From Hormiphora californensis (lineage: Eukaryota > Animalia > Ctenophora): a stretch of DNA of 64,000 nucleotides. The position numbers and the translations under genes are program-made. The notes below the pieces were generated by a model. That model had not been told where the DNA came from, made no database searches, and saw nothing but the letters and a program-made list of their open reading frames with translations. The stretch covers positions 6,262,001 through 6,326,000 of the forward strand of contig CM035356.1 of assembly GCA_020137815.1 (NCBI GenBank), in the 5' to 3' direction. Of this stretch, positions 1-44,935 are shown in pieces (position 1 is the first letter of the stretch; each line of letters begins with the position of its first letter).

Positions 1-7458
<7,458 letters not shown>

Positions 7459-9333
7459 TAACATTAGCCTTTCCACACAACTCCAGATCCCTCAATACAT
7501 GCCTGCTAGTCCGGGAGAGGGGAATGAGTGGCTTGTAAACAGGGGGGGGGGGGTTAAACCTAAAGGTGTGGCTGGTAGGGGTGTAACATCTAAAGGGTCT
7601 TTGGGGGTCCAGTTGTTCATCTGGTTGTAATTCCGCTCAATCTATACTAAATCTATAGCTAACAGCAACAATAATTTGGTTTCATTTAGGTGGCTCTTAG
7701 CACGGAATACAGCATACAACAGAAGAATTAGCCAAAGTGGCCACGATCATTTGAATTCGTCCTTTGCACGTCAAATTTAGTTTAAATCTCCACTCAAAGA
7801 AACTATCGGAGATATAAACCGCATGAGGTGTGAACTATTTTGAGTCCTCTTGTTAAGCATCGGCCATCGATCGCAATATGCAGACCCGACAGTGTCGGGC
7901 CAATACACAAAATAAGCTACAATGCAGTGCTGATGATTAAGAAGGGAGCAAAACAAATCCCAGTGGCACAGAAAACAGAAAACATCATCATGAAAAGTAA
8001 ATTGTCGTATACAATATATAAATCAAAAATTCTCACAGAGAACAACATCTATAATAGCGGGTTTACATCCCCACTTGCTCTCTTTCTCATCTGCTCCTCC
8101 AACTTCTTCTCCCCAAAGAACCCTTTTTTCGCCCCCAGAGTCACCCTCCAACATGAGCCTCTTTGCCACTTCCCCCAAAAAAGGGTCGGCATCAAGTAGC
8201 TGGGGCCATTGAAAATCCAGTTCTTGTTGCAGGTGTTGGTCTCCCGCTTTTGTGCTCCCGCAGTACCTTGATTTTTCCGTGGAGTCGACCACACTCCCGA
8301 TGCTGTCCGCTACCCCTTCTGTTGAATTGTTATTGCAAACAAATCCAGGGTAGCAGTTCCAACAAAAGGATTTGTGCACTGTGTTCGGAACTCCTCCAGT
8401 AGCAGAGTTGAAACTTGAACTAATGTCCTTCTCTCAGCCGCTCCTTCAGCTTTGTTAGAGTTGTACACGGTGCTTATCAGGGCCGTTTTTATCTGCACAG
8501 CCAGGGAGAAATAAGCAACTTTTTCCTCACCGCTGTCCGAACAGAGTGCTCAGCAGGGACGGCGCTGGGCCTTCGGCCCAGCAAGTCTCTGGGTGTCCGG
8601 GACCAGGGGCGGTAGCCTCGGTCAGGGGGCTGCTCAGAGCACTCTGTTCTGTGCTCATAAAATAAATCCAACACATACCCATCAATTATTATTATTATTA
8701 TTCAATCTAATTCAATACATATAACAATAACAATTGAATACATATTGACACTCCTTTTAGCGAGTAATAAAACGGTTGTCCGGTAAAAAGTACATGTTAT
8801 GCTGATGCCGATTCAAAAGTCCAAGAGGTAATTATATATAGATTAGGTACTGTAATAATAAATAGTAAGTTGATAGATAGATAGTTAAATAAGGGTAGAT
8901 ACTTAGATGATTAACTAGGGGATAACTAGGGGTAGAAAAGATGCAGAACAGCTAAATATAGCATAGTAAAATAAATTAGTATAGTCGCTGAGTCAAATTA
9001 AGCTGTACAGTTAAAACAGATTTTAAAATAAATAGAAAAATAGAAATTACCCTCACATACATGCTCATACCCAAAAGTATACAGTACACACACATACACA
9101 CACACACACACACAAACACACAAAAAACACACTCACACAAACAAGCATGTCCGTAAAAAACACAGACACAGAGTCACACATGACACAGGAATAGTAATAA
9201 GTTAAGATAGGATATTATTATAAGTAGTATTAATGATTTAAATAGGCAGTGAAGTGTGCTTGGCCAGCGGGTTGTAAAACTATGTTATTTTAAGTGGTAG
9301 ATAGGCTAATTAAGTAATTAGGTGAGGATAAGT

Positions 9334-12300
9334 TTAACTGGTAAGGAGCTCATCATTAAAAGTGGAGTTTTCTGTGACCTCATAAACAAGCTTTCTAAAC
9401 TTATGCTTAAGGTTTCTATCTCTAGAAAAGATAAGTGCTAGGTGGAAGTTGCCAGTGCAAACCGAGACCACACGACACTGGTCCCTAAGAGCCGATACCG
9501 CCCCGACAGCTGGACATTGGAAGAGCTTGTGGAAGGGTGAGTCGTGGTGCATGCCGCATTCAAGGCCGACAAAGTTTTGAAATCTTAAGCTATGCCCGTG
9601 GATGTAGTCCATAGTCAACGAAGAGTGCCTTCTGTCCATACTCCTATTGGTAAGAGGGGCTATGGAAACCGCTTCAGTATCCACAATAGATCGTAGCTCT
9701 TCAACCGTCGTAGTAGGAGAGTCGTCAGCAGAGATGTTCGTGATGTTAGCCTTGACGTGATCGTCCCACAATTTGTGCGTGAACATGTCCATAGTGTCCC
9801 GGGAATAGAGAAACTCTTCCGACTCATATGACAGTAGATCGCATGATCGAATAAATGATCGTCTCCGTCCCGTTTGAGATTCCGCTCTCTGTGCAGTCCA
9901 ATGGAGATACCTTTTAGTTTCCACAATATGTCCATAGAAAGGGTGGCTTGCCTCATGCTCAATTTGGAGCAATTTAGCAGTCATGGTGTCTCCCGCTGTA
10001 AGACCTTTTAGGACAAACTTCGTTGTGAGTACTGTCAAAATAATCGGTAGAGGGGGTATACCAATAAGAAGGTCAGCTAGTGTTTTCGAGATGTGAAATT
10101 GGCTTCCAATAATCTTCAGTTTAGCCCTTGCAATTAGATCGTTAAAACTGTCCAATCTGTTACGAAGCCATAGAGGTGCTCCGTATAGAAGTTTGGTAAG
10201 GATTACCATTCGGAACAGGAGCGAGAGGCCGTTGTTGTTTATTCCAGCTAACCTGGTAGTCCCACCCGACAGCTTACTCCAGGAATTCCAACACTTTTGC
10301 AAAGTGTAGACAGCATGCTTTTTAAAGCTCAGGTCTGTGTCGAGAATGATTCCCAGCACCTTGCTAGAGTCCGTGTAGAGAATTTCTCTGGGTCCAAGGT
10401 ACATAGGTTGTGGGGTAGATGATACTTCTTGATTCCTTGGGTGGATCACGAGAATCTCAGTTTTCCCTCTGTCGCAATTGATGACCAATCTCCATAGACG
10501 GCACCATTTCTGGATGTAATTGAGCACGCAGGACAGAGCTGTTTCACATTGAAGTTGATCTCCGGTTATTACAACCGTGCCATCATCAGCGAACTTAAAC
10601 GTTTCGCATCTTTCTCGGGCGTCCTCGGGTATATTCTTCGTTTCTAAGAGATCCGAAACGTATATGATGAATAGCACAGGGGAAATGACTGCCCCCTGCG
10701 GTAGCCCGATAAGAGTGCAGTTCCGGGGAGAACCAATTTTACCGTTTATCTTCAGCTTCACTTTTCGTGATGACAAGAAACAATTTACCAGACGTAGGAT
10801 GTTCCCCTTTATTCCAGCTTTATAGAGTTTGTAAATTAGGCAGGGGATGGGGACGCTGTCGAAAGCCTTTTCGAAATCCAAGAGAAGTAAAAAGGCAGTT
10901 GCTTTTCTCCGTCTGTTCTCGTGCAGTGTAGCCAGGAGACGGTATAAGTACCGTGTTGTGTTTCGTATGGGAAGAAAACCTTCTTGCTCGTCTTCCAAGA
11001 TGTTTTCCTCGTAACAATGAGCCCTGATCCTCTTATCCATAACTCGCTCAAACATTTTACCAACATAGCTTCCAATTGAGATCGGTCGAAAAGATCCAGG
11101 TTTAAGGTAAGATGATTTTCCTTGTTTCTTGATAAACGATACTATGGCTGTTTTCCATGGCCAAACCGAGGTAACGAGGCAGTTGGTGAAAAGTTTTGCC
11201 AAGAACATCCTTGCTAAAGGGCCAAGGTGTTTCAATGTCACGGGGTGTACTCCATCTCCATCTGTAGATTTGCTTCCACTGCCCTGTGCCGATATGGCCG
11301 CCATGATTTCCTCTGGTTGAACCTGCTTATTTAACTCGCTCTCTACCTCCTCATCCTCTCGTAGAAAAGAATCCACTTCCTCTTGTATGAATTCATAGTG
11401 TTGCTCGTCAAATTGATGATTCCTCAAATGTTTTCCACCGAAGAACGTGTCGAACAGGATTTGCTCCTTATCCCTAGGATCGTGCCGTAAAACTCCGTCG
11501 TCATCCAAACATCCAATAAAGTTTTCATCAGGTGTGAGGAATATTGATCGATACCGCTTCCAGAATATGTTAGTCTCAGTAACGTTCAGACCAATCAGTC
11601 TATCGTGGATCCATTTGTTTTTCCCCTCGATAAGGCTCTCCTTGAACAGTAGTTTAGCCTCTTCAACAGCAAGTCTGTTAATCCAAGTTCTTCGGTAACG
11701 GTATTTTTCCTGAGCATGTTGTAGATTTTTCGATAGTACGGTCAACTCGGGTGTCCAGTAGGGCTTGCTGTGCCGGCACACTGTTTTCAGAGGGATGTAT
11801 AGGTCTGAGGCTTCTTTCATGAAACTTAAAAGCTGTCGAAACATTTCATTTGGATCTTGTGAATCACAGCTTTGTAGGCAGCATTCGACGTGAAATTTCC
11901 ACTTTTTCCAATCTGCGTCCTGGTAATTGTAGACCTGTGTCCTCCGGTTACTCGCTCTAATAGTCCCGATTGATGATAAGACAGGAACATGTCCTCTTGC
12001 CGGTGCTCCCGTAAAAAGGCATAAGCCGTCCTCTTCATCAGTCCACGGACCATCGATCGCTAGCCCTGCTCCCCCGAACCGCAGTCCCAGATCAATAACA
12101 CTCCCTCCATTAACACAGATAAAAGTGTTAGAAAGTGGGGAGAGAATATCTGCTCCATACTGGTCACAGAAAGAATCGAGTAGGTGTCCACTTTGATTGT
12201 ATACCTTATCACCCCACGGAATTCCTCTTGCGTTGAAGTCTCCAAGAACATGAAATACCGGCACTCCGTTTCGTTTGCAGAATTCCCAGGCTTCCTGTAC

Positions 12301-12642
12301 AGACTTCAACAGAACCGACAAGTTATTGTCGGGACTGCTATACACAGATGCAAACATCATAGGTCGCCCAAGCACAGTCGCTATAGCAAAGATAGCTGCA
12401 ACATTAGTTTTCTTCAAACTCGTAATTCGATGAGGATGAAGGCTAGTAGCGATTGACAGTGAGACTCCTCTATCCGCGTCTATTCCAAAGGTGAGCATAT
12501 TCGTAAAAGCAGTCATTGCCGGAACGCAGCCAGTTTCCTGTAGTGCGAGTACCGACAATCTCCTATCGGCACTATAGTGGTCTAAAGCAATAAGTGATTG
12601 CTTAGAGAGACCAGAAATGTTAATCTGTCCGAGACTAAACAT
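9334..12642 (-). CDS. LINE ORF2: AP-like endonuclease plus reverse transcriptase, degenerate C-terminal zinc motif, no evident RNase H
   Basis: EN motifs QINISG, LQET, SVYSSP, GDFNA, TF..SVIDL; RT motifs FRPISI, QEGF, LDFEKAFDSV, GLPQGAVISPVLF, FADD, KVLGIILD. The likely ATG at 12642 overlaps the end of ORF1. The frame is open for about 1100 aa. Confidence 0.95.
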   Translation of the reverse strand: MFSLGQINISGLSKQSLIALDHYSADRRLSVLALQETGCVPAMTAFTNMLTFGIDADRGVSLSIATSLHPHRITSLKKTNVAAIFAIATVLGRPMMFASVYSSPDNNLSVLLKSVQEAWEFCKRNGVPVFHVLGDFNARGIPWGDKVYNQSGHLLDSFCDQYGADILSPLSNTFICVNGGSVIDLGLRFGGAGLAIDGPWTDEEDGLCLFTGAPARGHVPVLSSIGTIRASNRRTQVYNYQDADWKKWKFHVECCLQSCDSQDPNEMFRQLLSFMKEASDLYIPLKTVCRHSKPYWTPELTVLSKNLQHAQEKYRYRRTWINRLAVEEAKLLFKESLIEGKNKWIHDRLIGLNVTETNIFWKRYRSIFLTPDENFIGCLDDDGVLRHDPRDKEQILFDTFFGGKHLRNHQFDEQHYEFIQEEVDSFLREDEEVESELNKQVQPEEIMAAISAQGSGSKSTDGDGVHPVTLKHLGPLARMFLAKLFTNCLVTSVWPWKTAIVSFIKKQGKSSYLKPGSFRPISIGSYVGKMFERVMDKRIRAHCYEENILEDEQEGFLPIRNTTRYLYRLLATLHENRRRKATAFLLLLDFEKAFDSVPIPCLIYKLYKAGIKGNILRLVNCFLSSRKVKLKINGKIGSPRNCTLIGLPQGAVISPVLFIIYVSDLLETKNIPEDARERCETFKFADDGTVVITGDQLQCETALSCVLNYIQKWCRLWRLVINCDRGKTEILVIHPRNQEVSSTPQPMYLGPREILYTDSSKVLGIILDTDLSFKKHAVYTLQKCWNSWSKLSGGTTRLAGINNNGLSLLFRMVILTKLLYGAPLWLRNRLDSFNDLIARAKLKIIGSQFHISKTLADLLIGIPPLPIILTVLTTKFVLKGLTAGDTMTAKLLQIEHEASHPFYGHIVETKRYLHWTAQRAESQTGRRRSFIRSCDLLSYESEEFLYSRDTMDMFTHKLWDDHVKANITNISADDSPTTTVEELRSIVDTEAVSIAPLTNRSMDRRHSSLTMDYIHGHSLRFQNFVGLECGMHHDSPFHKLFQCPAVGAVSALRDQCRVVSVCTGNFHLALIFSRDRNLKHKFRKLVYEVTENSTFNDELLTS

Positions 12643-14033
12643 GATCGTTGCAACGGGTAGAGTACTCAGGGCATGCCATAGTGTTAGCAGAGTGATGTCG
12701 GTTTCTGTTATCCTTCCCACTACAGTTAGGACAGCTTAGGCCGGAACGGTTGCGGTTTATGATGATTGGACATTCGGTTGGAACATGAGAAGGGTCACTG
12801 CAATGAGGGCACTTGTACTCATTCCTACACCAGGCGGCCGGGTGTCCATATCGCCAACAGTTTTGGCATTGAGCAGGAGTCCTTCGTTGTTTCGATATGT
12901 ACTCCCGCAAACGGAAGACACGGTTTCCAATAAAAAGAGTCTTCCCCATGACATGATCTCTGTCCTCCTTAGATTCAAAAGTAAAGAGATAGCAGGGACG
13001 AGGCTTTCCGTCGCGTCCCTTCAATCTGACTGCCTCCATTGCGATTCCGCTGAATTCAAGTGCCCATGCCTCGGTAACTTGGTCGTCAGAGATTTCTGGT
13101 TCCACATAGTCTATCACCGCTTTCCTATCATCAGATACTCTGGAGTTCATCATTAGTGTTGCCGTCGTTGTCACATCATTTCCTTGGAAGGGGCCACCGA
13201 AGTATGAAGGGTCCCAACCGTTCACCACCTTTTGTGCTTCAAGGGGAGTAATAAGCTCTAGGAGGAGAGTGCCGTGTTTGGTCGGCTTGCACTGAACAAT
13301 TTCCACACGGGAGTAGTACTCATTAAAATAGTGCATGGATATGTGGCCTTTAGTTAAATACTTAGAATACTGAATAATCACGGATACCTTTAATAATTAC
13401 TGTTTTAGTGGGGTCACATGGAGAACGTTTAACATTAACTCTATCTTTAACTTTAACAGACAACACAGGCTTCGAAGCTTTAGTAACAGTGATAAATTCA
13501 TCATTACCCTGATTAACAATAGCGTTATTTGTACCATTTGCATTATTAGTACCATTAGAGTCCTGATTTACTCTGATTTCCGACTCATTTGCTGCCTGGG
13601 AATACGTTAACTCACGCCGAACTCCTAACTCCTCCTTGACAACATCTCGTATAACACTTTTAACATCATTCCTAACATCATTTCGGATCATTTCCCTCAA
13701 ACTTTCCAGTTCCATTTGAAGATTACTACCAATTGGATTTTGATTAATGTCCTTATTACACGTTTCGAAAACGGATTCGTTCAGTTTGTAGCTTGTATAT
13801 AACAGATCCCATAATTGGGTGTCGGTGATGGCCGGTTGCGTTTTACCTTGACGCGTAGTGGGTTTTGCAGCGTGGTTATGCCCCTTAGTAAGGGCGTTTA
13901 GGATGTCCATTGACTTCAGAGTTGCTGTGAGATCATCGAATTGCTGCCGGAGGTCGGGTGTGACATAGGGATCAGGTGGTCGACATTGTTCAGAGCTATC
14001 ACTGTTAGGGCTATCACCCTCGTCATCTCTCAT
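12635..14033 (-). pseudogene. LINE ORF1 (coiled-coil, RRM-like region, three CCHC knuckles) split by one frameshift at about 13370
   Basis: ORFs 13362-14033 and 12635-13381 overlap; knuckles CQNCWRYGHPAAWC, CPHCSDPSHVPTEC and CPNC..H..C. Removing 7 nt at TATTC-AG-TATTC joins them as ..IRDYSKYL.. Confidence 0.85.
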
Positions 14034-14056
14034 TCTACGGCACCTAGAGGCCAGGC

Positions 14057-14098
14057 CTCAAATTAATTTGTTTAAAGTAGTGTTGAAAAGTTTGAAAC
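14057..14098 (-). other. Genomic copy of the ctenophore spliced-leader exon
   Basis: Minus strand reads GTTTCAAACTTTTCAACACTACTTTAAACAAATTAATTTGAG, matching my recollection of the pleurobrachiid SL (3' end AAATTAATTTGAG). It is not followed by a GT donor, so it is not an SL RNA gene. Confidence 0.85.
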
Positions 14099-14111
14099 AA
14101 TAAGCCTACTA

Positions 14112-14332
14112 AAGGAAAACCCAAGCAACAATAGCCCTCACTTGGGTTTTGTGAAACTTCCCACGGTCATTGCTCCACCCCCTGATGAGATAGATACAAC
14201 AATACAATACAATACAAAATAAACATTTATAGTCCGCTCTTTAACTGTCCGTTTTACGGTTCAGCACAAGTGAATGATCGTGGGAAATTTCACAAAACCC
14301 AAGTGAGGGCTATTGTTGCTTGGGTTTTCCTT
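14112..14332. mobile_element. MITE with about 60-bp TIRs and TA TSD
   Basis: AAGGAAAACCCAAGCAACAATAGCCCTCACTTGGGTTTTGTGAAA.. and its reverse complement at the right end; TA at 14110-11 and 14333-34. Confidence 0.85.
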
Positions 14333-15434
14333 TAAACGACTGATGGGGTGAGACTTGAGAGTCTGCAGGCCGCAAGGACCGAGACGTCCCGTAGAAACGT
14401 CAGAAGGACAGACAAAACGAGAGGTGCGCGCGTTTTTATAGATTCAATTCAAAACGCGGCGCGGGTTATATTTGCGCGTTACAAATCGTGACAAAGTGCT
14501 GACAACAACTTTTAATAAGATATGGCGTGTCGCGCGTCACGTTATTGTATTCCTCCATAGAGTTCCAAATTTGAAAATGCAGTCCATCCTTCCAAAATAG
14601 TGACTGCATTAGGGAAGATAAATACACATGGGCTATACCATTCCTAGTGCACCAGTTTTCAACGCTGATGGCCTCATCAACCTTCGGTTGGTTCAACTGA
14701 ATAACAACGTACGCCCCACTGCCCACTGTCCTGATAGTCTAACAGTTATACTGTGTGTATTTGCCATGGAAACTCAGTATTCACTGACCCTCTTTCCGCA
14801 GTTCAATTATCACCCTTCTCAGTTACCATGGGAACCCGTATTGTCCGAGACCCTAGATTCTTGATTCTAGAACTCTGAGTGTATGAGTGATAGCATGAGT
14901 GGGTGAATTCCACTGCCTTCATTCCCAAGGAATATGATTGGGACCATAAATGGTCCAGTACTGACAATTTTAAGACCAGTCTCAGACTGACGACAGTCTA
15001 GAGGGTAACCTTTTGTTAAACCTTGTTTAGTTGTTTGTCATTAGGTACCTCCCAAACACCGTCTTACTCTCTCACTATTCTACACAACTCCTAATTATAT
15101 CATTTAATAAATAGGAGCCCCTTCCAGATATCTCCCTCTCTCTATCTATCTCTCTCTCTCTATCTCTCCCTCTCTCTCTCGGTCCACTACACGCACCACT
15201 CCCGCATGGGGCCGTAAGGTCCCATGCGTGAGCAGGGTTAAATCCCCCGAGCCCGGATCCTGTTGGATCTGAGGGCCCGGAGGGCCTGCGGAGTAAAGGT
15301 AGGTAAAACAATGTACATAGGGGTAAGTTGAACAATGTACATATGGGTTAAAGTAAGGGGAAAACATTTAAAGGGGAGTTAAAGCTCATGGTGGCTCTCT
15401 CTCTCTCTCTCACACTTTCTCTCTCTCACTTTCT

Positions 15435-15467
<33 letters not shown>

Positions 15468-15530
15468 TCTCTCTCTCTCTCTCCTCTCTCGTCTTCTCAT
15501 CTCTCTCTCTCTCTCTCTCGTCCTCTCTCT

Positions 15531-16212
15531 GGCACAGTGGGTGTTCGGGGTGTTCTCCAGTCGGGACCCTGAGCTGATGATCACTGTTTATAAAACCCTG
15601 GTCAGAAGCTTGATGGAGTACTGCTCACCATTGTGGAGCCCGCAAACTGTCGGTGACATCCAACTGCTCGAGTCTGTTCAGCGGGGCTTCACAGCGAAGA
15701 TCTCCGGTATGAAGGATCTTGACTACTGGCAGCGCCTGGAAGCCCTCGACTTGATGTCTTTGCAAAGACGACGGGATAGGTATGCAGTGCTAATCATGCA
15801 CAAGACTTACCGTGGGCTGATACCGAATGAAACCGATATTAGCTTCAACCGTACCTCCCGCCACGGTGTCAAAGCAGAGATACCTGACCTGTCAAGGGTG
15901 AAGAGCAAAAGAACTTGCACACTGTATAGCTCTTCCTTCGGTTCCATTGGTCCTAGACTGTGGAACTGTCTCCCGGATGATCTGAGGGAGATCGAGGACC
16001 CCGATTTATTTAAAAATAAGCTGGACCTCCTTCTCCGTGATATCCCAGACCGTCCCCCTACACCTGGATATCAAGCACCAAACAGAAACTCTTTGTATGA
16101 CTGTGTGTTGGAGCCAGTTCAAATAAAACGGTGTCCGAGTCCTGGGATGAACCTGACGTATCATGAACGAAAAAAAAAACAACTCAAAAGTATCACAAAT
16201 GTGTAGTAAGTA
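15531..16212 (+). mobile_element. 5'-truncated CR1/L2-group LINE fragment (C-terminal part of ORF2 plus 3' end) embedded in a (TC)n tract
   Basis: YKTLVRSLMEYCSPLWSP, LESVQRGFT, YWQRLEALDLMSLQRRRDR, GPRLWNCLP; ends with ..GTAGTAAGTA; TC repeats on both flanks. Confidence 0.9.
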
Positions 16213-17060: not shown

Positions 17061-27412
<10,352 letters not shown>

Positions 27413-27899: not shown

Positions 27900-29413
27900 T
27901 TAAAATCACTCAAATATTACAATAAATAAATAAATAAAATCTCACACATGTTTCAAATATTGAAGTCCATATTTTCCAATCCTGTTGGGGCGTACTTTGT
28001 ACGGCATCCTCTTAATGACCTTAAGGTGGCTACCAGTAGGCAGAACCTGAGCCGCCTTCTGATTGCCGCCAAAGCCTCACTGTAGATTTCTCCGTGTTTC
28101 TTTTCAATCAGTTTGGCTGTCTTCTTAATCGCTCTGTCCATTTCAGGGCCAACACCACCTGTTGTGGTAAACACTAGTGGAGAAAAGGTCCCACCCTCGA
28201 CAATCTGGACTCGTCTCATGTAACAGGTCTTCTTGGACTTCTCGTGGTTTTTGTACAGAGATGATGGCTTGATATTGAGATAAGAAGCTGCCATCGGGTG
28301 ACAGACTCTGACATCCATGTAGGACATCTGGTCAGGAGCCCACAATCCCATGCATACAATGTCCATACGGGCGTCTCTGTCTGTATTTGCCCAAGGATAT
28401 TGCTGCATTTCTTGGTCGTAATCCTCACATGGTTGTAGGAGTTTTTCAGTTTTTATAGACCTGACACCAGCGTAGGATAAGATATCAGCAAAGTTGTCTC
28501 TCAGGCGGTCGTGTCTGTAGATTGTGTAACCACCTTTGTGACAGGACAATGCGTGATCGGCACTGTTACTGGACCCACATGGGCATTTGGAGGGGAGATC
28601 GAGAAACGGTAATCCAAATCGAAGGTGCATCGCATCGACAAACTCTTGTTTGGTCAGGTGATGTCCATGTGCTTCGATGGGTCTTGCTGTCAGCCAAGAG
28701 GATGCCCCAGGTTCTTGGTTTAGTGATTGTAACCGGTTTTCCGTGTCAGTCATCCTTGCTTTCAGGGATTTCACCTGGACAAGATGTCTTTCGATTGTAC
28801 TTTCTTCGCATTCCTTGGTTCTCTCTCTGGTGATCTTTTCGATTTTGTCTATCGTAGGACCATCCAGTTCTTCATCTGAGAGAAGGTGCTCCACTAATGG
28901 GCCTGTGCAGTGGAGAGAATGCTCGTATGCAGTGTCAGCCGAGAGCATTGGGTTTTCAATTCCTAGACCCCCCATCTTGACGGGTAGAGCGATAAGTTCC
29001 CGTTGCAGATCCGTTACATGTGAGCCGAGCAGAGATGGAATGAATTCGTGGCGGATGATGTTCTCTAGGGGTTCAAAGAGTAATCCGATTCCAGGAACTG
29101 TGCGTTGCATATAACTCCATTTGAATTTGAAGCTCCTTGTGTAGTTTGCATAAGCAACGTGTGGGTCAGTCTTGGTGATTGTCACTAGGTTTTGAAGAGC
29201 TTCGGCCCACTTGGTCACTTCACCAGATACATATTCCTTCTTGTAGGTTTCCGAACCTATGACCGCCCCAAGATGGCGATTGCCTGTTGTAGTAATAGTC
29301 ATTCCTGTATCACTAAACATATCCTCTGCTTCACTCAGATGTTCGAGTTTTACAATCAGCACACATTTGTTAGGATTTATAATGTATCCGTGAGCTGGAC
29401 CTTTGGTAACCAC
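27900..29413 (-). mobile_element. 5'-truncated CRE-clade-like non-LTR retrotransposon (RT C-terminus, CCHC and restriction-like endonuclease); ORF 27953-29413
   Basis: GPAHGYIINPNK, RHLGAVIG, LPVKMGGLGI, GASSWL, CPCG..DHALSC, RHDRLRD, RMDI..DVRV, EKSKK..Y, FSPLVFTTTGG; short 3' UTR with (TTTA)n. Confidence 0.85.
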
Positions 29414-29441
29414 AAAAAATGAACAAAAACGGGAAATTTGC

Positions 29442-29724
29442 GGGCGCGATTATAATCTGGGTGCCTTGCAGCGTGTTTACAGGTGCGCGCTGCCAAAAAA
29501 GTACACCTACAACCACTTAGACCGACTTTTTTCAAACGGCTATAGCCGCGGAACCACATGGCCGATTTGAGTGAACTAAACGGTATCTGATAGAGAATCG
29601 ATAGCCCTAACCGATAACCCCAAACGAAACCCTAACCCGACCCTAACAACAGCCCTAACCCGTCTCGACCGCCAAAATCCATGAATTGTTAGCAATGGAA
29701 GGCACCCAGATTTTAACGTTTTCC
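29442..29724 (+). mobile_element. About 275-bp dispersed repeat with imperfect sub-TIRs and degenerate telomere-like (CCCTAA) units; further copies at 30918-31190, 31194-31466 (tandem) and 45174-45226 (ends only)
   Basis: Left end GGGCGCGATTATAATCTGGGTGCCTT, right end AAGGCACCCAGATTTTAACGTTTTCC, internal CCCTAACC variants. Confidence 0.8.
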
Positions 29725-29893
29725 GAAATGGGCCGAACCTGGAATTCGTAATATAGCGCGCGGAACAGAAAGAGCCAAAATTTGGCAGCGCTTCGATTCA
29801 CAACTCGCGCATTCCATTTCGCGAGGTCGTTTGCATCGCATTTAAGGCGATACGAGGTCTGTTTTTTATTTTTTCGCGTTCGCGTCCTTTCTA

Positions 29894-30115
29894 TACTCGG
29901 ATTTTTTGAAACTGTCACCCCCCTGAAATAAAAAATTTGTCATATCTCCGGTTCCTGATAAGATAGAGACTTGAAATTTGGAGGTTCGGAAGAACTTAGC
30001 AAGATCTTCGTAACTTCCAAATTTCAAGTCTCTATCTCATCAGGAACCGGACTTATGGTCATTTAAAGAAATTTGAAAACTCTAGGGGGGTGACAGTTTC
30101 AAAAAAATCCGACTT
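29894..30115. mobile_element. Second copy of the 222-bp palindromic MITE
   Basis: Near-identical to 27459-27680. Confidence 0.9.
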
Positions 30116-30117
30116 TA

Positions 30118-30269
30118 TAGTCCATTTTTTTTCAACTGTTCACCCCCCAAAGTCGTGCGCGGAATTGTTTTGCGCGTTTATCACATGTTAACGTGTAGCG
30201 CGCGCCACCCAAATTCTAATTTTTATTAAATTTCAGATTTTGGGTGAACAGTTGAAAAAAAATGGACTT
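30118..30269. mobile_element. Related TA-flanked MITE abutting the previous one
   Basis: TIR AGTCCATTTTTTTTCAACTGTTCACCC / GGGTGAACAGTTGAAAAAAAATGGACT; shares the TA at 30116-17. Confidence 0.75.
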
Positions 30270-30804
30270 TAAAAACTCGGAAAAACTAAAAAGTAACCGA
30301 TCGTGGTCGGTGGTGTGGGTTTGAAAAGCGCTGCCTTATCCCGGTATCTGGGGCCAGCAGCGTTTGCCAAGGTATGCGTTTATTATCTGAGACCCCGGTG
30401 TTCGATCGCTGTTTCCAAAAAGTTTGATTTTGCCCGGATCACCAAAATCTTTGCCAGAGACGGAGCTGACCGTACGTCCACCCACTGGGTCCTGCTCGTG
30501 GGGGAACTGCCCCTATGGCCTACACCCCCGCCGGCGCTGCCCCCTGCTCTACGCTAGTGGGGGAATCGGCCCTGATCTCTCCAAAGCACCCAAAGAGACG
30601 ACCGGGCTGAGAGTTTTGGTGTATGTGTAGACGATTTGCTGTGATTTGCTGTTAACAGCAATTTATTCTCATGGACTGTGTAATTGCGTGTTTTTACTAT
30701 TTACCTTCTACAAATAATTTCAATAGACTTTAAAAAGGTGCCGCCTTTAACCGCGGGTTTTCTACCCTGTTGGCGGAGCCCTATGAGCTCTCTATGTTTT
30801 TATA

Positions 30805-32199
30805 AACTAGAGTACCCGTTTGCTGGGAACCCGTGACCTGGTAAATGGTAATTTATCCTCATATAACCGGTGACATTTGTGTTTGATTTTGAAAAGATAA
30901 ATTAATTTGTTTGTTCCGGGCGCGATTATAATCTGGGTGCCTTGCAGCCTGTTTACAGGTGCGCGCTACCAAAAGAGTATAGTTAGACCGACTTTTTTCA
31001 AACGGCTATAGCCATGGAACCACATGGCCGATTTGAGTAAACTAAACGGTATCAGTTAGAGAATCGATAGCCCTAACCGATAACCCCAAACCAAACCCTA
31101 ACCAGACCCTAACGGATAGCCCTAACCCGTCGCGCGCGCCAAAACTACGAACTGTTAGCAATGAAAGGCACCCAGATTTTAACGTTTTCCGTTGGGCGCG
31201 ATTATAATCTGGGTGCCTTGCAGCCTGTTTACAGGTGCGCGCTACCAAAAGAGTATACTTAGACCGACTTTTTTCAAACGGCTATAGCCATGGAACCACA
31301 TGGCCGATTTGAGTAAACTAAACGGTATCAGTTAGAGAATCGATAGCCCTAACCGATAACCCCAAACCAAACCCTAACCAGACCCTAACGGATAGCCCTA
31401 ACCCGTCGCGCGCGCCAAAACTACGAATTGTTAGCAATGAAAGGCACCCAGATTTTAACGTTTTCCTTTTCCGTTGGTTCCTTAGAGCAATGAGTAATAG
31501 TAGGAGCGCGTTACAATTTTGGCGAGGCGGGTAAATCATTTATTGTAACGCGCGAATTTTCCCAAAAAAGCGCTGCTTTTTTACGCCGCGCGCGGAACCT
31601 AGAATTACGCGCGCAGTGTAAAATTTTAAAATTCATTGTATTGAAAATTTCCTCTACTCCCCAACGACGAAAAATTCCAAATTCGTGAATTTAGAATTAT
31701 AAGAACTCCGGTCAGTTCTCATCTTGCCAATCCGTTTTCCGGGAACCCCTGGCCAAAGGAAATTAAAATTCACATAACGACCAAGTTTCATATCGATTGG
31801 ATAAGATTTTGGGTGGCTACGGTGAAAAATATCGTATTTTTGGCATTTTTAACTTTCCCGACGCGATTTACGACCCTTAAACATTGAGTTACGGGAAATC
31901 GTTATCATGTAAAATGAAGTTCAAACGATTCTCTTTCCCCACTATTGCGTTAGTTTTTTGATTTAGAGCCGTTTTCAGGGTCTTAGAAGCGTTTGAAAAA
32001 TGTAAGTCTTTTTGTCGCAATGACGTCACCCCGTGACGTCACTGTTGTAAAGATCGGATCAAAAATCTGAGCCCGTACTTACACCCGCCTTGGTCCAAAG
32101 TACCAGTGTAAAAATTTTCAGGGGTCTAGCTCAAAAACTGTAGGAGGAGTAGGGAGAAAACAATTATCGGACTAACATTTTGGAATTTATTATATGGAT
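30805..32199 (+). mobile_element. Possible non-autonomous Helentron/HINE-like element with the tandem 275-bp repeats nested inside
   Basis: Starts AACTAG.., ends ..TTTATTATATGGAT, with internal AAGTTTCA..TCGAT and AAATTTTCA..CTAGCTC motifs reminiscent of such elements. Boundaries are uncertain. Confidence 0.4.
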
Positions 32200-32481
32200 T
32201 TCCAGTTTTAACTTTTTCACAATAAAAAAAGAGGTAATCTCGAGGTGATCTTGAGGTACTTGTCGAATGCGGGAGCCGGGAGGAAGAGAGGTTAGGTTTG
32301 CTCATGCTCTCAAGTATTTTGATATGGTAGTGGAATAATTGGAATCAGCTAGCGCCTAGCGGACTGACTGACTAACGTCTAACGCGTGTTATGTTCTAAC
32401 CCTTCTTTGGCTGCATGCAACAAGAGGCGATCGAGCAAGGCTTCCTTTGCATCTCCACGTGATCTCCAGGGGACCCCGTTC

Positions 32482-32528
32482 GTTTAAAGTAGTTTTGAAA
32501 AGTTAAAAACTATTCAAATTAATTTGAG
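32482..32528. other. Rearranged spliced-leader relic: inverted 5' part plus forward 3' part
   Basis: Reverse complement of 32482-32510 is GTTTTTAACTTTTCAAAACTACTTTAAAC (26/29 identical to the SL at 14057-14098); then TATT and forward CAAATTAATTTGAG. Confidence 0.7.
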
Positions 32529-32618
32529 CACTGACGACTTTGTTTCTGCTTTGTTTGATTTGATTTAGTTTTGATCCTATTTCTAACAACTGCCACTCCT
32601 CATTAGGATAATAGTGGT

Positions 32619-43906: not shown

Positions 43907-44935
43907 TCAGATTGCCTCGGAGAACACTGAAAACTCAGATGATTTAGGTTTAAAGAATCCCAAAAACCTCTCTTTGAGATGTGGTAGTATGTCCTTCATT
44001 TTACCGTTCAAATGCTCCACTCGATCACCCACATCAATGATATCAAATAACTGCGCCTCCCGCTCCGCTATCTCGTTCATTCCCCCAAAAATCCTCAAAT
44101 CACGAGGATCGAAATAGATCTCGGTTCGGGTGCCAAACAGAACTCGGTTAAGGTTGTGTAGAGCTGTATCGCGATTTAGTTTGAGAAGATGACGATAGAA
44201 AATCAGTATGCAATCTCTCAACCATTTTGAGTCTGAATAAACATAACCAAGTTCATCTTCCGGGGGATCAGGGAAAATTCGGTGAATTGTTTCCTCACTT
44301 TGTAGTGAAAGAGGAACCGTCTGGTATGGCTCATCAAGATAATAACCCGCTTGTTCATTAAAATGATAGTCCGTTTTCAGAATATTGCCGTGTCCCAACT
44401 TCCCTGCAACCACTTCACGAGTCAGCGTGGAAACAAATGGAACTAAAAAGTCGTTGGGTTGGAAAGACACCTCTCGTTTGAGGACTAAGAGTTGGTTTGA
44501 CTGAACACACACAAACACAATATTGCTTTCCTCGACCAAGACAGCATTGTTGCAGTAAACCCTCACACCTTTCTTGGCAAGTGCACCTAACTTCTCAGGT
44601 TGAAATGTAGACACCGCAATGTCTTGGTGGGTACACACACCATGGTGTATAAGTGTGGCTATAATGTGCTTGGTAAGTCGTCCCCCGCCGATAAACCCAA
44701 CTTCTAGACGGTGTTTTGGGGTGAACCCAGGGAGAAGCAGTTCACCAGTCTGACCAACTTGATTTGCAATGTTCAACATTCCCACAAGGTATGTACTCTG
44801 GGCACACGCGTGTAGAAGAAGTTCGAAGGAACGTTTCTCAAGTTGAAGAAGAGCTTTCTCTGAGTCATCAAGGTGCTTGTGTAGGGTTAGGGAGGGTAGA
44901 CCATAGGTAATGTCTTCTTCAGCCGTCCTAACCAT
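43907..44935 (-). CDS. NOXRED1: NADP-dependent oxidoreductase domain protein 1-like (P5C reductase/F420-oxidoreductase Rossmann fold), single coding exon
   Basis: 342-aa open frame with VGFIGGGRL and YCNNAVLVEESNIVFVCV; acceptor-like TTTCAG 1 nt before the ATG. Confidence 0.75.
   Translation of the reverse strand: MVRTAEEDITYGLPSLTLHKHLDDSEKALLQLEKRSFELLLHACAQSTYLVGMLNIANQVGQTGELLLPGFTPKHRLEVGFIGGGRLTKHIIATLIHHGVCTHQDIAVSTFQPEKLGALAKKGVRVYCNNAVLVEESNIVFVCVQSNQLLVLKREVSFQPNDFLVPFVSTLTREVVAGKLGHGNILKTDYHFNEQAGYYLDEPYQTVPLSLQSEETIHRIFPDPPEDELGYVYSDSKWLRDCILIFYRHLLKLNRDTALHNLNRVLFGTRTEIYFDPRDLRIFGGMNEIAEREAQLFDIIDVGDRVEHLNGKMKDILPHLKERFLGFFKPKSSEFSVFSEAI

Follow-up and report, generated by a model that had tools for sequence, protein, structure and literature searches.

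In the window, the whole 64,000-nt stretch of Hormiphora californensis DNA analyzed here, an APE-type LINE retrotransposon directly adjoins a spliced leader (SL) exon. The explanation that best accounts for this arrangement, to which we assign a probability of roughly 0.65, is insertion of the LINE into a copy of an SL RNA gene, where the exon meets the intron, which would make the leader target DNA and not the element's own head. This explanation is drawn from one LINE copy. Taken together, the readings that place an SL intron behind the tail of the element are very probable. Table 1 gives the features of the locus and of its surroundings.

Table 1. Features of the LINE locus and its surroundings, numbered from the first letter of the window
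Feature	Position	Strand	Remarks
Flank beyond the intron start	8510..8636	-	G+C-rich hairpin region, then A-rich stretch and 7-nt repeat; the repeat may be a duplication bounding the entire SL-RNA-derived unit
Predicted SL RNA intron start	8637..8678	-	From folds and null tests; no homologue found
Hairpin, 6 bp	8656-8637	-	Fold prediction
U-rich Sm-like stretch	8666-8657	-	8/10 T, interrupted, between stems
Donor GT and exon-pairing segment, 12 nt	8678-8667	-	Fold prediction
Spacer TGATGG, 6 nt	8679..8684	-	Filler, or the exon end duplicated in degenerate form
(AAT)6 tail	8685..8702	-	Likely 3' end of the element; TRF period 3, 6 copies
LINE 3' UTR	8703..9333	-	Between ORF2 stop and tail
ORF2, 1102 aa, APE endonuclease and RT	9334..12642	-	Pfam Exo_endo_phos_2 and RVT_1
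ORF1, C-terminal CCHC knuckles	12635..14033	-	Frameshift near 13372-13385
LINE 5' UTR, 23 nt	14034..14056	-	Starts GC, not GT; two TAG (ending 14044, 14035)
Spliced-leader exon, 42 nt	14057..14098	-	42/42 against the 3' 42 nt of the leader of Hormiphora; likely the left half of the SL RNA gene copy that served as target
MITE, 225 nt	14110..14334		TA ends, long inverted arms; 11 nt upstream of the leader
Second, older leader relic	32479..32528	+	Leader 1-32 inverted (28/32, E 2e-6), then leader 29-42 forward (14/14)

An earlier reading of this DNA, made from the sequence only, had described a 42-mer (14098-14057) separated by 23 nt (14056-14034) from the ORF1 ATG at 14033 on the minus strand, and all three are present as it claimed. 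Its identification of the 42-mer as the ctenophore spliced leader held up on comparison with the published leader: the 42-mer is identical to the last 42 of the 44 nt printed for Hormiphora californensis in PMC8527503. The two bases 5' of it are TT versus GA in the published leader, and the 5' end of the leader at this locus lies no more than 2 nt from the published 5' end. The last 29 nt of the 42-mer occur once in the window with up to 3 mismatches allowed (0 of 100 shuffles matched), and leader positions 29-40 (window 14059-14070) form a perfect 12-nt palindrome. In a run from the same species that is only guessed to be RNA (X22; 506 records), cover was found in 3 of 30 bins, all over the leader, from which contigs extended into mixed, unrelated sequences. 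Given this restricted cover with unrelated continuations, together with the identity to the published leader, we take the 42-mer to be the leader of H. californensis itself. As expected, searches for the exact leader pattern gave 0 matches in viral contigs and 0 in prokaryote contigs. The leader is abundant in its host, with 718 copies in the ~110-Mb Hormiphora genome and a presence on 56% of Iso-Seq reads (PMC8527503).

The assignment of the element to the APE-type LINEs was also upheld: ORF1 carries knuckles, ORF2 combines an APE domain with an RT in Pfam and in its PDB matches (L1 ORF2p, TRAS1 EN), and the element ends in a simple-repeat tail. A Pfam search of ORF2 gave no RNase H match. 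Neighbors of ORF1 in the Atlas included zf-CCHC and X-element nucleic-acid-binding clusters, and tblastn with an intact relative (P0074) matched ORF1 in two frames. ORF2 is without 14 aa near 9564, including the first Cys of its C-terminal knuckle, that are present in the sister protein P0077 (88% identical). Because of the ORF1 frameshift and the residues missing from ORF2, we judge from the sequence that the copy at this locus is dead. A relative with 48% aa identity (L004) has a (TAA)6 run at the same position as the window LINE's tail; the tail is thus a family feature, and the flank beyond it lies outside the element. At the other end, the 5' UTR is, as had been pointed out, too short to resemble a normal promoter-bearing UTR. 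The contig encoding P0077 is 5405 nt long, where an intact element without leader would be 5414 nt, which weakly suggests that a short 5' UTR is shared by the family. The first 10 to 17 nt of the LINE are complementary to the last bases of the leader (14040-14063, minus strand), and a modeled fold-back hairpin of the one on the other could hide the AG/GC junction. This fold-back was not better than shuffles (z 0.82), and structure predictions at the LINE 5' end gave nothing ribozyme-like or stable (z 0.69 to 0.95).

The sequence-only reading had held that an SL intron and Sm site after the tail would point to insertion into an SL RNA gene, and the search for such an intron behind the tail was therefore named beforehand, although the fold cut-offs were chosen after the site had been seen. 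Behind the tail, the minus strand reads in order TGATGG, GTATGTGTTGGA, TTTATTTTAT, and a 6-bp hairpin, with the donor G|GTATGT starting six bases behind the tail. SL RNAs are expected to carry a donor after the exon and an Sm site between stem-loops (PMC7986045, PMC3795323), and GGTA is the conserved motif of their exon/intron border (PMC3795323). When the LINE is taken out, the reconstructed empty site has a GT donor directly after the exon within a GGTA border, and the donor is predicted to lie in a stem-loop with a further stem-loop downstream. Folded together, the leader and the first 12 nt of the flank give a single helix of 17 bp (-15.2 kcal/mol) that contains the donor, 6 bp being formed within the exon and 11 bp contributed by the flank in register. 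With 12 nt of flank, and with the tested site itself counted, folds as low as this were reached at 9 of 7235 GT, 4 of 1649 GTA, 2 of 442 GGTA, and 1 of 138 donor-type sites in the window; of the four low-folding GTA sites, the other three lack the combination of U-rich stretch and hairpin that follows the donor here. Seven or more T in 10 nt were present at 23/1649 GTA sites, and a hairpin as low as the downstream one (-9.4) at 49/1649. Extended to 50 nt of flank, the fold reached -25.4 versus -14.2 ± 2.75, with 2 of 1000 two-base-block shuffles as low, and 30-nt windows holding a GT start this good were rare (28/4264). The rank of the fold weakens with flank length, to 31, 73, and 144 of ~7234 GT sites at 16, 20, and 25 nt.

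Part of the expected SL RNA layout was thus recovered behind the tail, in the form of a donor pairing in register with the exon, a U-rich stretch, and a hairpin, but the Sm site is non-canonical: no AT4-6G was found within 150 nt of the tail. The Sm sites of Hydra and Schistosoma are also non-default (PMC7986045). An Rfam search gave no SL family match and only a sub-threshold miRNA match on the MITE, and a second copy of the intron start was found neither in the window (up to 2 mismatches) nor in 89 loci. From folding alone, the flank behind the tail is predicted to be the start of an SL RNA intron.

Insertion into an SL gene copy would proceed as follows. The endonuclease would cut at or beside the SL donor, and TPRT from the UAA tail would put the element behind the exon, its GC replacing the GT donor. 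From an active copy, the Pol II promoter of the SL gene would then drive a capped RNA consisting of the leader, the 23 nt, and ORF1, with no trans-splicing involved; given such co-transcription, the element would have no need of a promoter-bearing 5' UTR. The LINE family would be expected to prefer the SL donor site, because an exact chance insertion is unlikely with several hundred sites in a genome of ~110 Mb (Hormiphora figures). The target may be an SL pseudogene or an SL-RNA-derived repeat, given its dispersed location between two host genes and the MITE next to it. The earlier claim that the LINE "begins" with a leader was not confirmed: the two adjoin, but the 3' flank suggests that the leader belongs to the target. 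A broader proposal, that a ctenophore APE LINE family independently evolved cutting at SL donors, shed its promoter and 5' UTR, and came to be expressed as a forged trans-spliced mRNA with the promoter, cap, and leader of its host, is tentative, and we hold it at slightly worse than even odds.

Other copies of the leader and of the LINE were sought in DNA reads. Contigs leaving the reference at 14098 with mixed upstream flanks numbered 13, 15, and 22 in three DNA runs, and those leaving at 14057 with mixed downstream sequence numbered 22, 24, and 27. The latter are not exon-plus-GT genes, because the base after the leader differs from the window's G; with mixed flanks on both sides, leader copies are therefore dispersed, many of them being something other than SL genes. 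A few positions in the ORF1 contigs do not agree with the window, and one contig has a 6-nt deletion; this variation shows that other LINE copies exist. Contig depth over ORF1 versus flank (1209.6 versus 128 in run X5; 183 versus 19 to 41 in run X2) suggests that there are several in the genome, depth not being a copy number. Among the matches listed, one variant ORF1 contig keeps its identity to the UTR up to 14049, and an alternative 5' end or a leader-plus-GT contig was absent from those matches (24 of 308 loose ends, 32 of 3517 pieces), which proves nothing either way.

Of the competing explanations, the one that survives best combines targeting of SL donors with an element RNA that is itself headed by a leader, acquired by trans-splicing or by co-transcription, whose cDNA leader would anneal to the target exon. 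It draws on the same 3' flank as insertion into an SL gene, the 5' junction is seamless and without filler, and transposon RNAs are trans-spliced in Hydra (PMC12220107). Against it, one copy cannot tell this combination from the simpler insertion, nothing in the data requires trans-splicing, and ORF1 had no cover in run X22, a run only guessed to be RNA in which missing cover is not evidence of silence. We consider this combined explanation unlikely.

The sequence-only reading had proposed instead a leader that the element RNA gained by trans-splicing and that was copied along with it up to the cap, read-through transcripts possibly being re-spliced at the AG of the leader; insertion would then have been at a random site, and the resemblance of the 3' flank to an SL intron would be chance. 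Several observations fit this proposal. The 5' end of the leader lies close to the published one (within 2 nt), leader-headed copies outside SL genes are common in the DNA runs, and the LINE is co-oriented between two host genes, making read-through possible: it lies between a coiled-coil/ankyrin gene that ends near 17064 and a PP4R3 gene that starts near 7460, all on the minus strand (gene ends placed by eye). The second relic shows the inverted-then-forward layout of twin priming, a mechanism described in PMC12016303. Elsewhere, about 30% of Hydra transposon Iso-Seq reads carry the leader (PMC12220107), and dinoflagellate retrogenes are re-spliced at the AG of their relic (PMC5585692, PMC12014239).

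The proposal is nevertheless probably wrong, and we rate it as improbable. It would require the donor, its in-register pairing with the leader, the U-rich stretch, and the hairpin to stand 6 nt behind the tail all by chance, when pairing of this quality alone is as infrequent as the 28/4264 windows given above. The terminal AG of the leader forms a GAG, a rare splice acceptor in general, and 0 of 7 predicted host acceptors are GAG, while the two TAG in the 23-nt UTR would compete as acceptors. That the leader holds a single AG is at chance level, being expected in 39% of shuffles. An SL-relic retrocopy would have unrelated flanks and no SL intron at its locus, whereas here an intron-like flank follows the tail. 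The case made by the modeled 3' flank against a trans-spliced head is strong but not complete.

The second relic is followed after 90 nt by the ATG (32619) of a host gene with two RRMs that is rich in introns. In a gene model drawn by eye, this gene spans 32619 to about 39100 on the plus strand, with RRM_1 in two exons and a Gly/Tyr tail, and is hnRNP/Musashi-like. It has at least 7 predicted introns, and the 7 acceptors predicted by hand comprise 6 CAG and 1 AAG. Before the gene, a rival candidate for the trans-splice acceptor is the U-rich TAG at 32568. The relic fits the kind of SL-relic retrogene reported from dinoflagellates (PMC5585692, PMC12014239). A route from trans-spliced RNA to DNA thus exists, but it suits the LINE locus less well than insertion into an SL gene does.

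The repeats around the locus bear on a further alternative, 3' transduction, in which transcription of a master copy, sitting in an SL gene at another locus, began at the leader and ran past the tail into the SL intron, and a single retroposition event brought the whole co-transcript, from 14098 to 8517, to the present site. The 7-mer abutting the leader (14105-14099) recurs behind an A-rich stretch at 8516-8510, 162 nt beyond the donor (such a 7-mer was present in 17 of 1276 control windows), and the site is intergenic and outside any SL array. The repeat could bound the whole co-transcript, retroposed at once; it could equally bound a 204-nt SL-RNA-derived retrocopy that the LINE entered later, and an older SL RNA retrocopy of this kind fits it just as well. 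Transduction would moreover require priming away from the element's own tail, and the 7-mer is weak. We think it distinctly improbable. The last alternative, a one-off template switch, as reverse transcription was ending, from a long-UTR LINE RNA to SL RNA or to an mRNA that had been trans-spliced, recalls the LINE/snRNA chimeras that reportedly occur in mammals, but it leaves the 3' flank unexplained, requires a landing exactly on the exon end, and finds little space for a long UTR in the P0077 contig, and is highly improbable.

At the junctions of the LINE itself, no significant target duplication was detected, the best candidate being an 8-mer (P 0.29). The spacer TGATGG resembles the leader end plus GT weakly, 4.4% of control windows scoring equally high; it may have arisen by copying of the exon end and later damage, or as filler accompanied by a 1- to 2-nt duplication. 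Farther out, a multi-hairpin, G+C-rich region at 8520-8656 (minus strand) has an 18-bp closing stem and could be the rest of the SL RNA, the body of an SL-headed SINE, or another insertion. The MITE is highly repeated in three DNA runs, including one from a related organism.

The nearest named proteins to ORF2 are from Pleurobrachia (58%) and Mnemiopsis (40%). In a quick RT tree of 78 rows, from which P0001 and P0055 were omitted as too short and in which L004 was not included, the element fell in a 60-row clade (100) without named reference elements; Pleurobrachia and Mnemiopsis proteins were again the nearest named rows, and rows bearing RNase H fell outside the clade. The leader was absent from 80 metagenome loci of LINE relatives (6 of them close), the best match having 2 mismatches in the last 14 nt and the six close loci 3 to 5. 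Nine viral loci examined encode distant RTs. L004 has no donor after its tail, and any SL-donor specificity is therefore not clade-wide. AT-rich stretches ending in TTGAG were seen upstream of ORF1 in L002 (37-50), L005, and L006 (940-970) and at the 3' end of the L003 contig; they may be leaders of other hosts, are too short to call, and were not used. An N-terminal PHD-like finger is present on ORF1 in P0094, L001, and L002, and the ORF1 of the window is without one.

The closest parallels in target are NeSL of nematodes and CRE/SLACS/CZAR of trypanosomatids, which like the window LINE sit in SL genes in the same sense as the leader (PMC3636483, PMC4640811). For CRE and NeSL, co-transcription with the target has been proposed in PMC3636483, which itself states that experimental data are lacking. 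These elements have one ORF with a C-terminal restriction-like nuclease and a tandem-array target in other host phyla, whereas the window LINE has two ORFs with an N-terminal APE and a dispersed target in a ctenophore. With two ORFs and an N-terminal APE, the window LINE does not belong to the CRE and NeSL clades, which are defined by a restriction-like endonuclease and a single ORF. Keno, TRAS, SART, and R1, from the Tx1 and R1 clades, are APE elements that are also target specific. Such elements share with the window LINE the APE, an ORF1 with CCHC knuckles, and insertion into multicopy RNA genes, but the accessible text of PMC4640811 gives no SL-gene target for them. Like the window LINE, dinoflagellate SL-relic retrogenes have a leader in DNA just upstream of an ORF, but they are host genes without a downstream SL intron, whereas the tail of the LINE is followed by an intron-like stretch (PMC5585692, PMC12014239). 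Hydra transposon transcripts (PMC12220107) and Cer1 of C. elegans (PMC3315495) show that transposon RNA is able to use a host leader, but the available portions of these sources concern RNA only and describe no genomic leader junction, and full-length Cer1 RNA is not trans-spliced (PMC3315495). A literature search, with subscription papers and Repbase reports mostly outside it, found no APE LINE that is inserted at SL genes and none that carries a leader in the genome.

If the broader proposal of an APE family that evolved to cut at SL donors is correct, the LINE would be an SL-gene parasite of another nuclease class than CRE/NeSL, and such parasites might explain some of the leader copies that lie dispersed by the hundreds in ctenophore genomes. 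If the family is donor specific, targeting of SL genes would have evolved a further time, in an animal of an early-branching lineage and through an APE in place of a restriction-like nuclease. It would then offer a convergent case for how elements gain specificity for a target and lose their promoter, as well as an APE with a short target for study. The flank also provides a candidate intron and Sm site for the SL RNA of ctenophores and would help to sort the 718 leader copies into genes, pseudogenes, and retrocopies. More generally, a leader before a LINE is no proof of trans-splicing until the 3' flank has been checked.

The rest of the window was surveyed with a Pfam scan of the 140 longest of 202 frames. 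Upstream of the LINE, the gene with ankyrin repeats and a long coiled coil comprises one 5.4-kb exon (21535-26994, minus strand) and small exons down to about 17064; the PP4R3/SMEK gene occupies 1-7470 on the same strand. A fragment of the RT C terminus of another LINE lies at 15388-16206 (plus strand) between CT microsatellites (P0061, E 1e-9). An ORF of 455 to 498 aa at 27956-29449 (minus strand) has repeats on its flanks and no Pfam match; from CPCG and RHD motifs seen by eye, we take it to resemble the C-terminal part of a retrotransposon with a restriction-like nuclease. Next to it, a repeat of 276 to 283 nt is present in three copies within 29442-31469, two of them in tandem at 99%, and an intronless 342-aa ORF with an F420_oxidored domain is found at 43907-44935 (minus strand).
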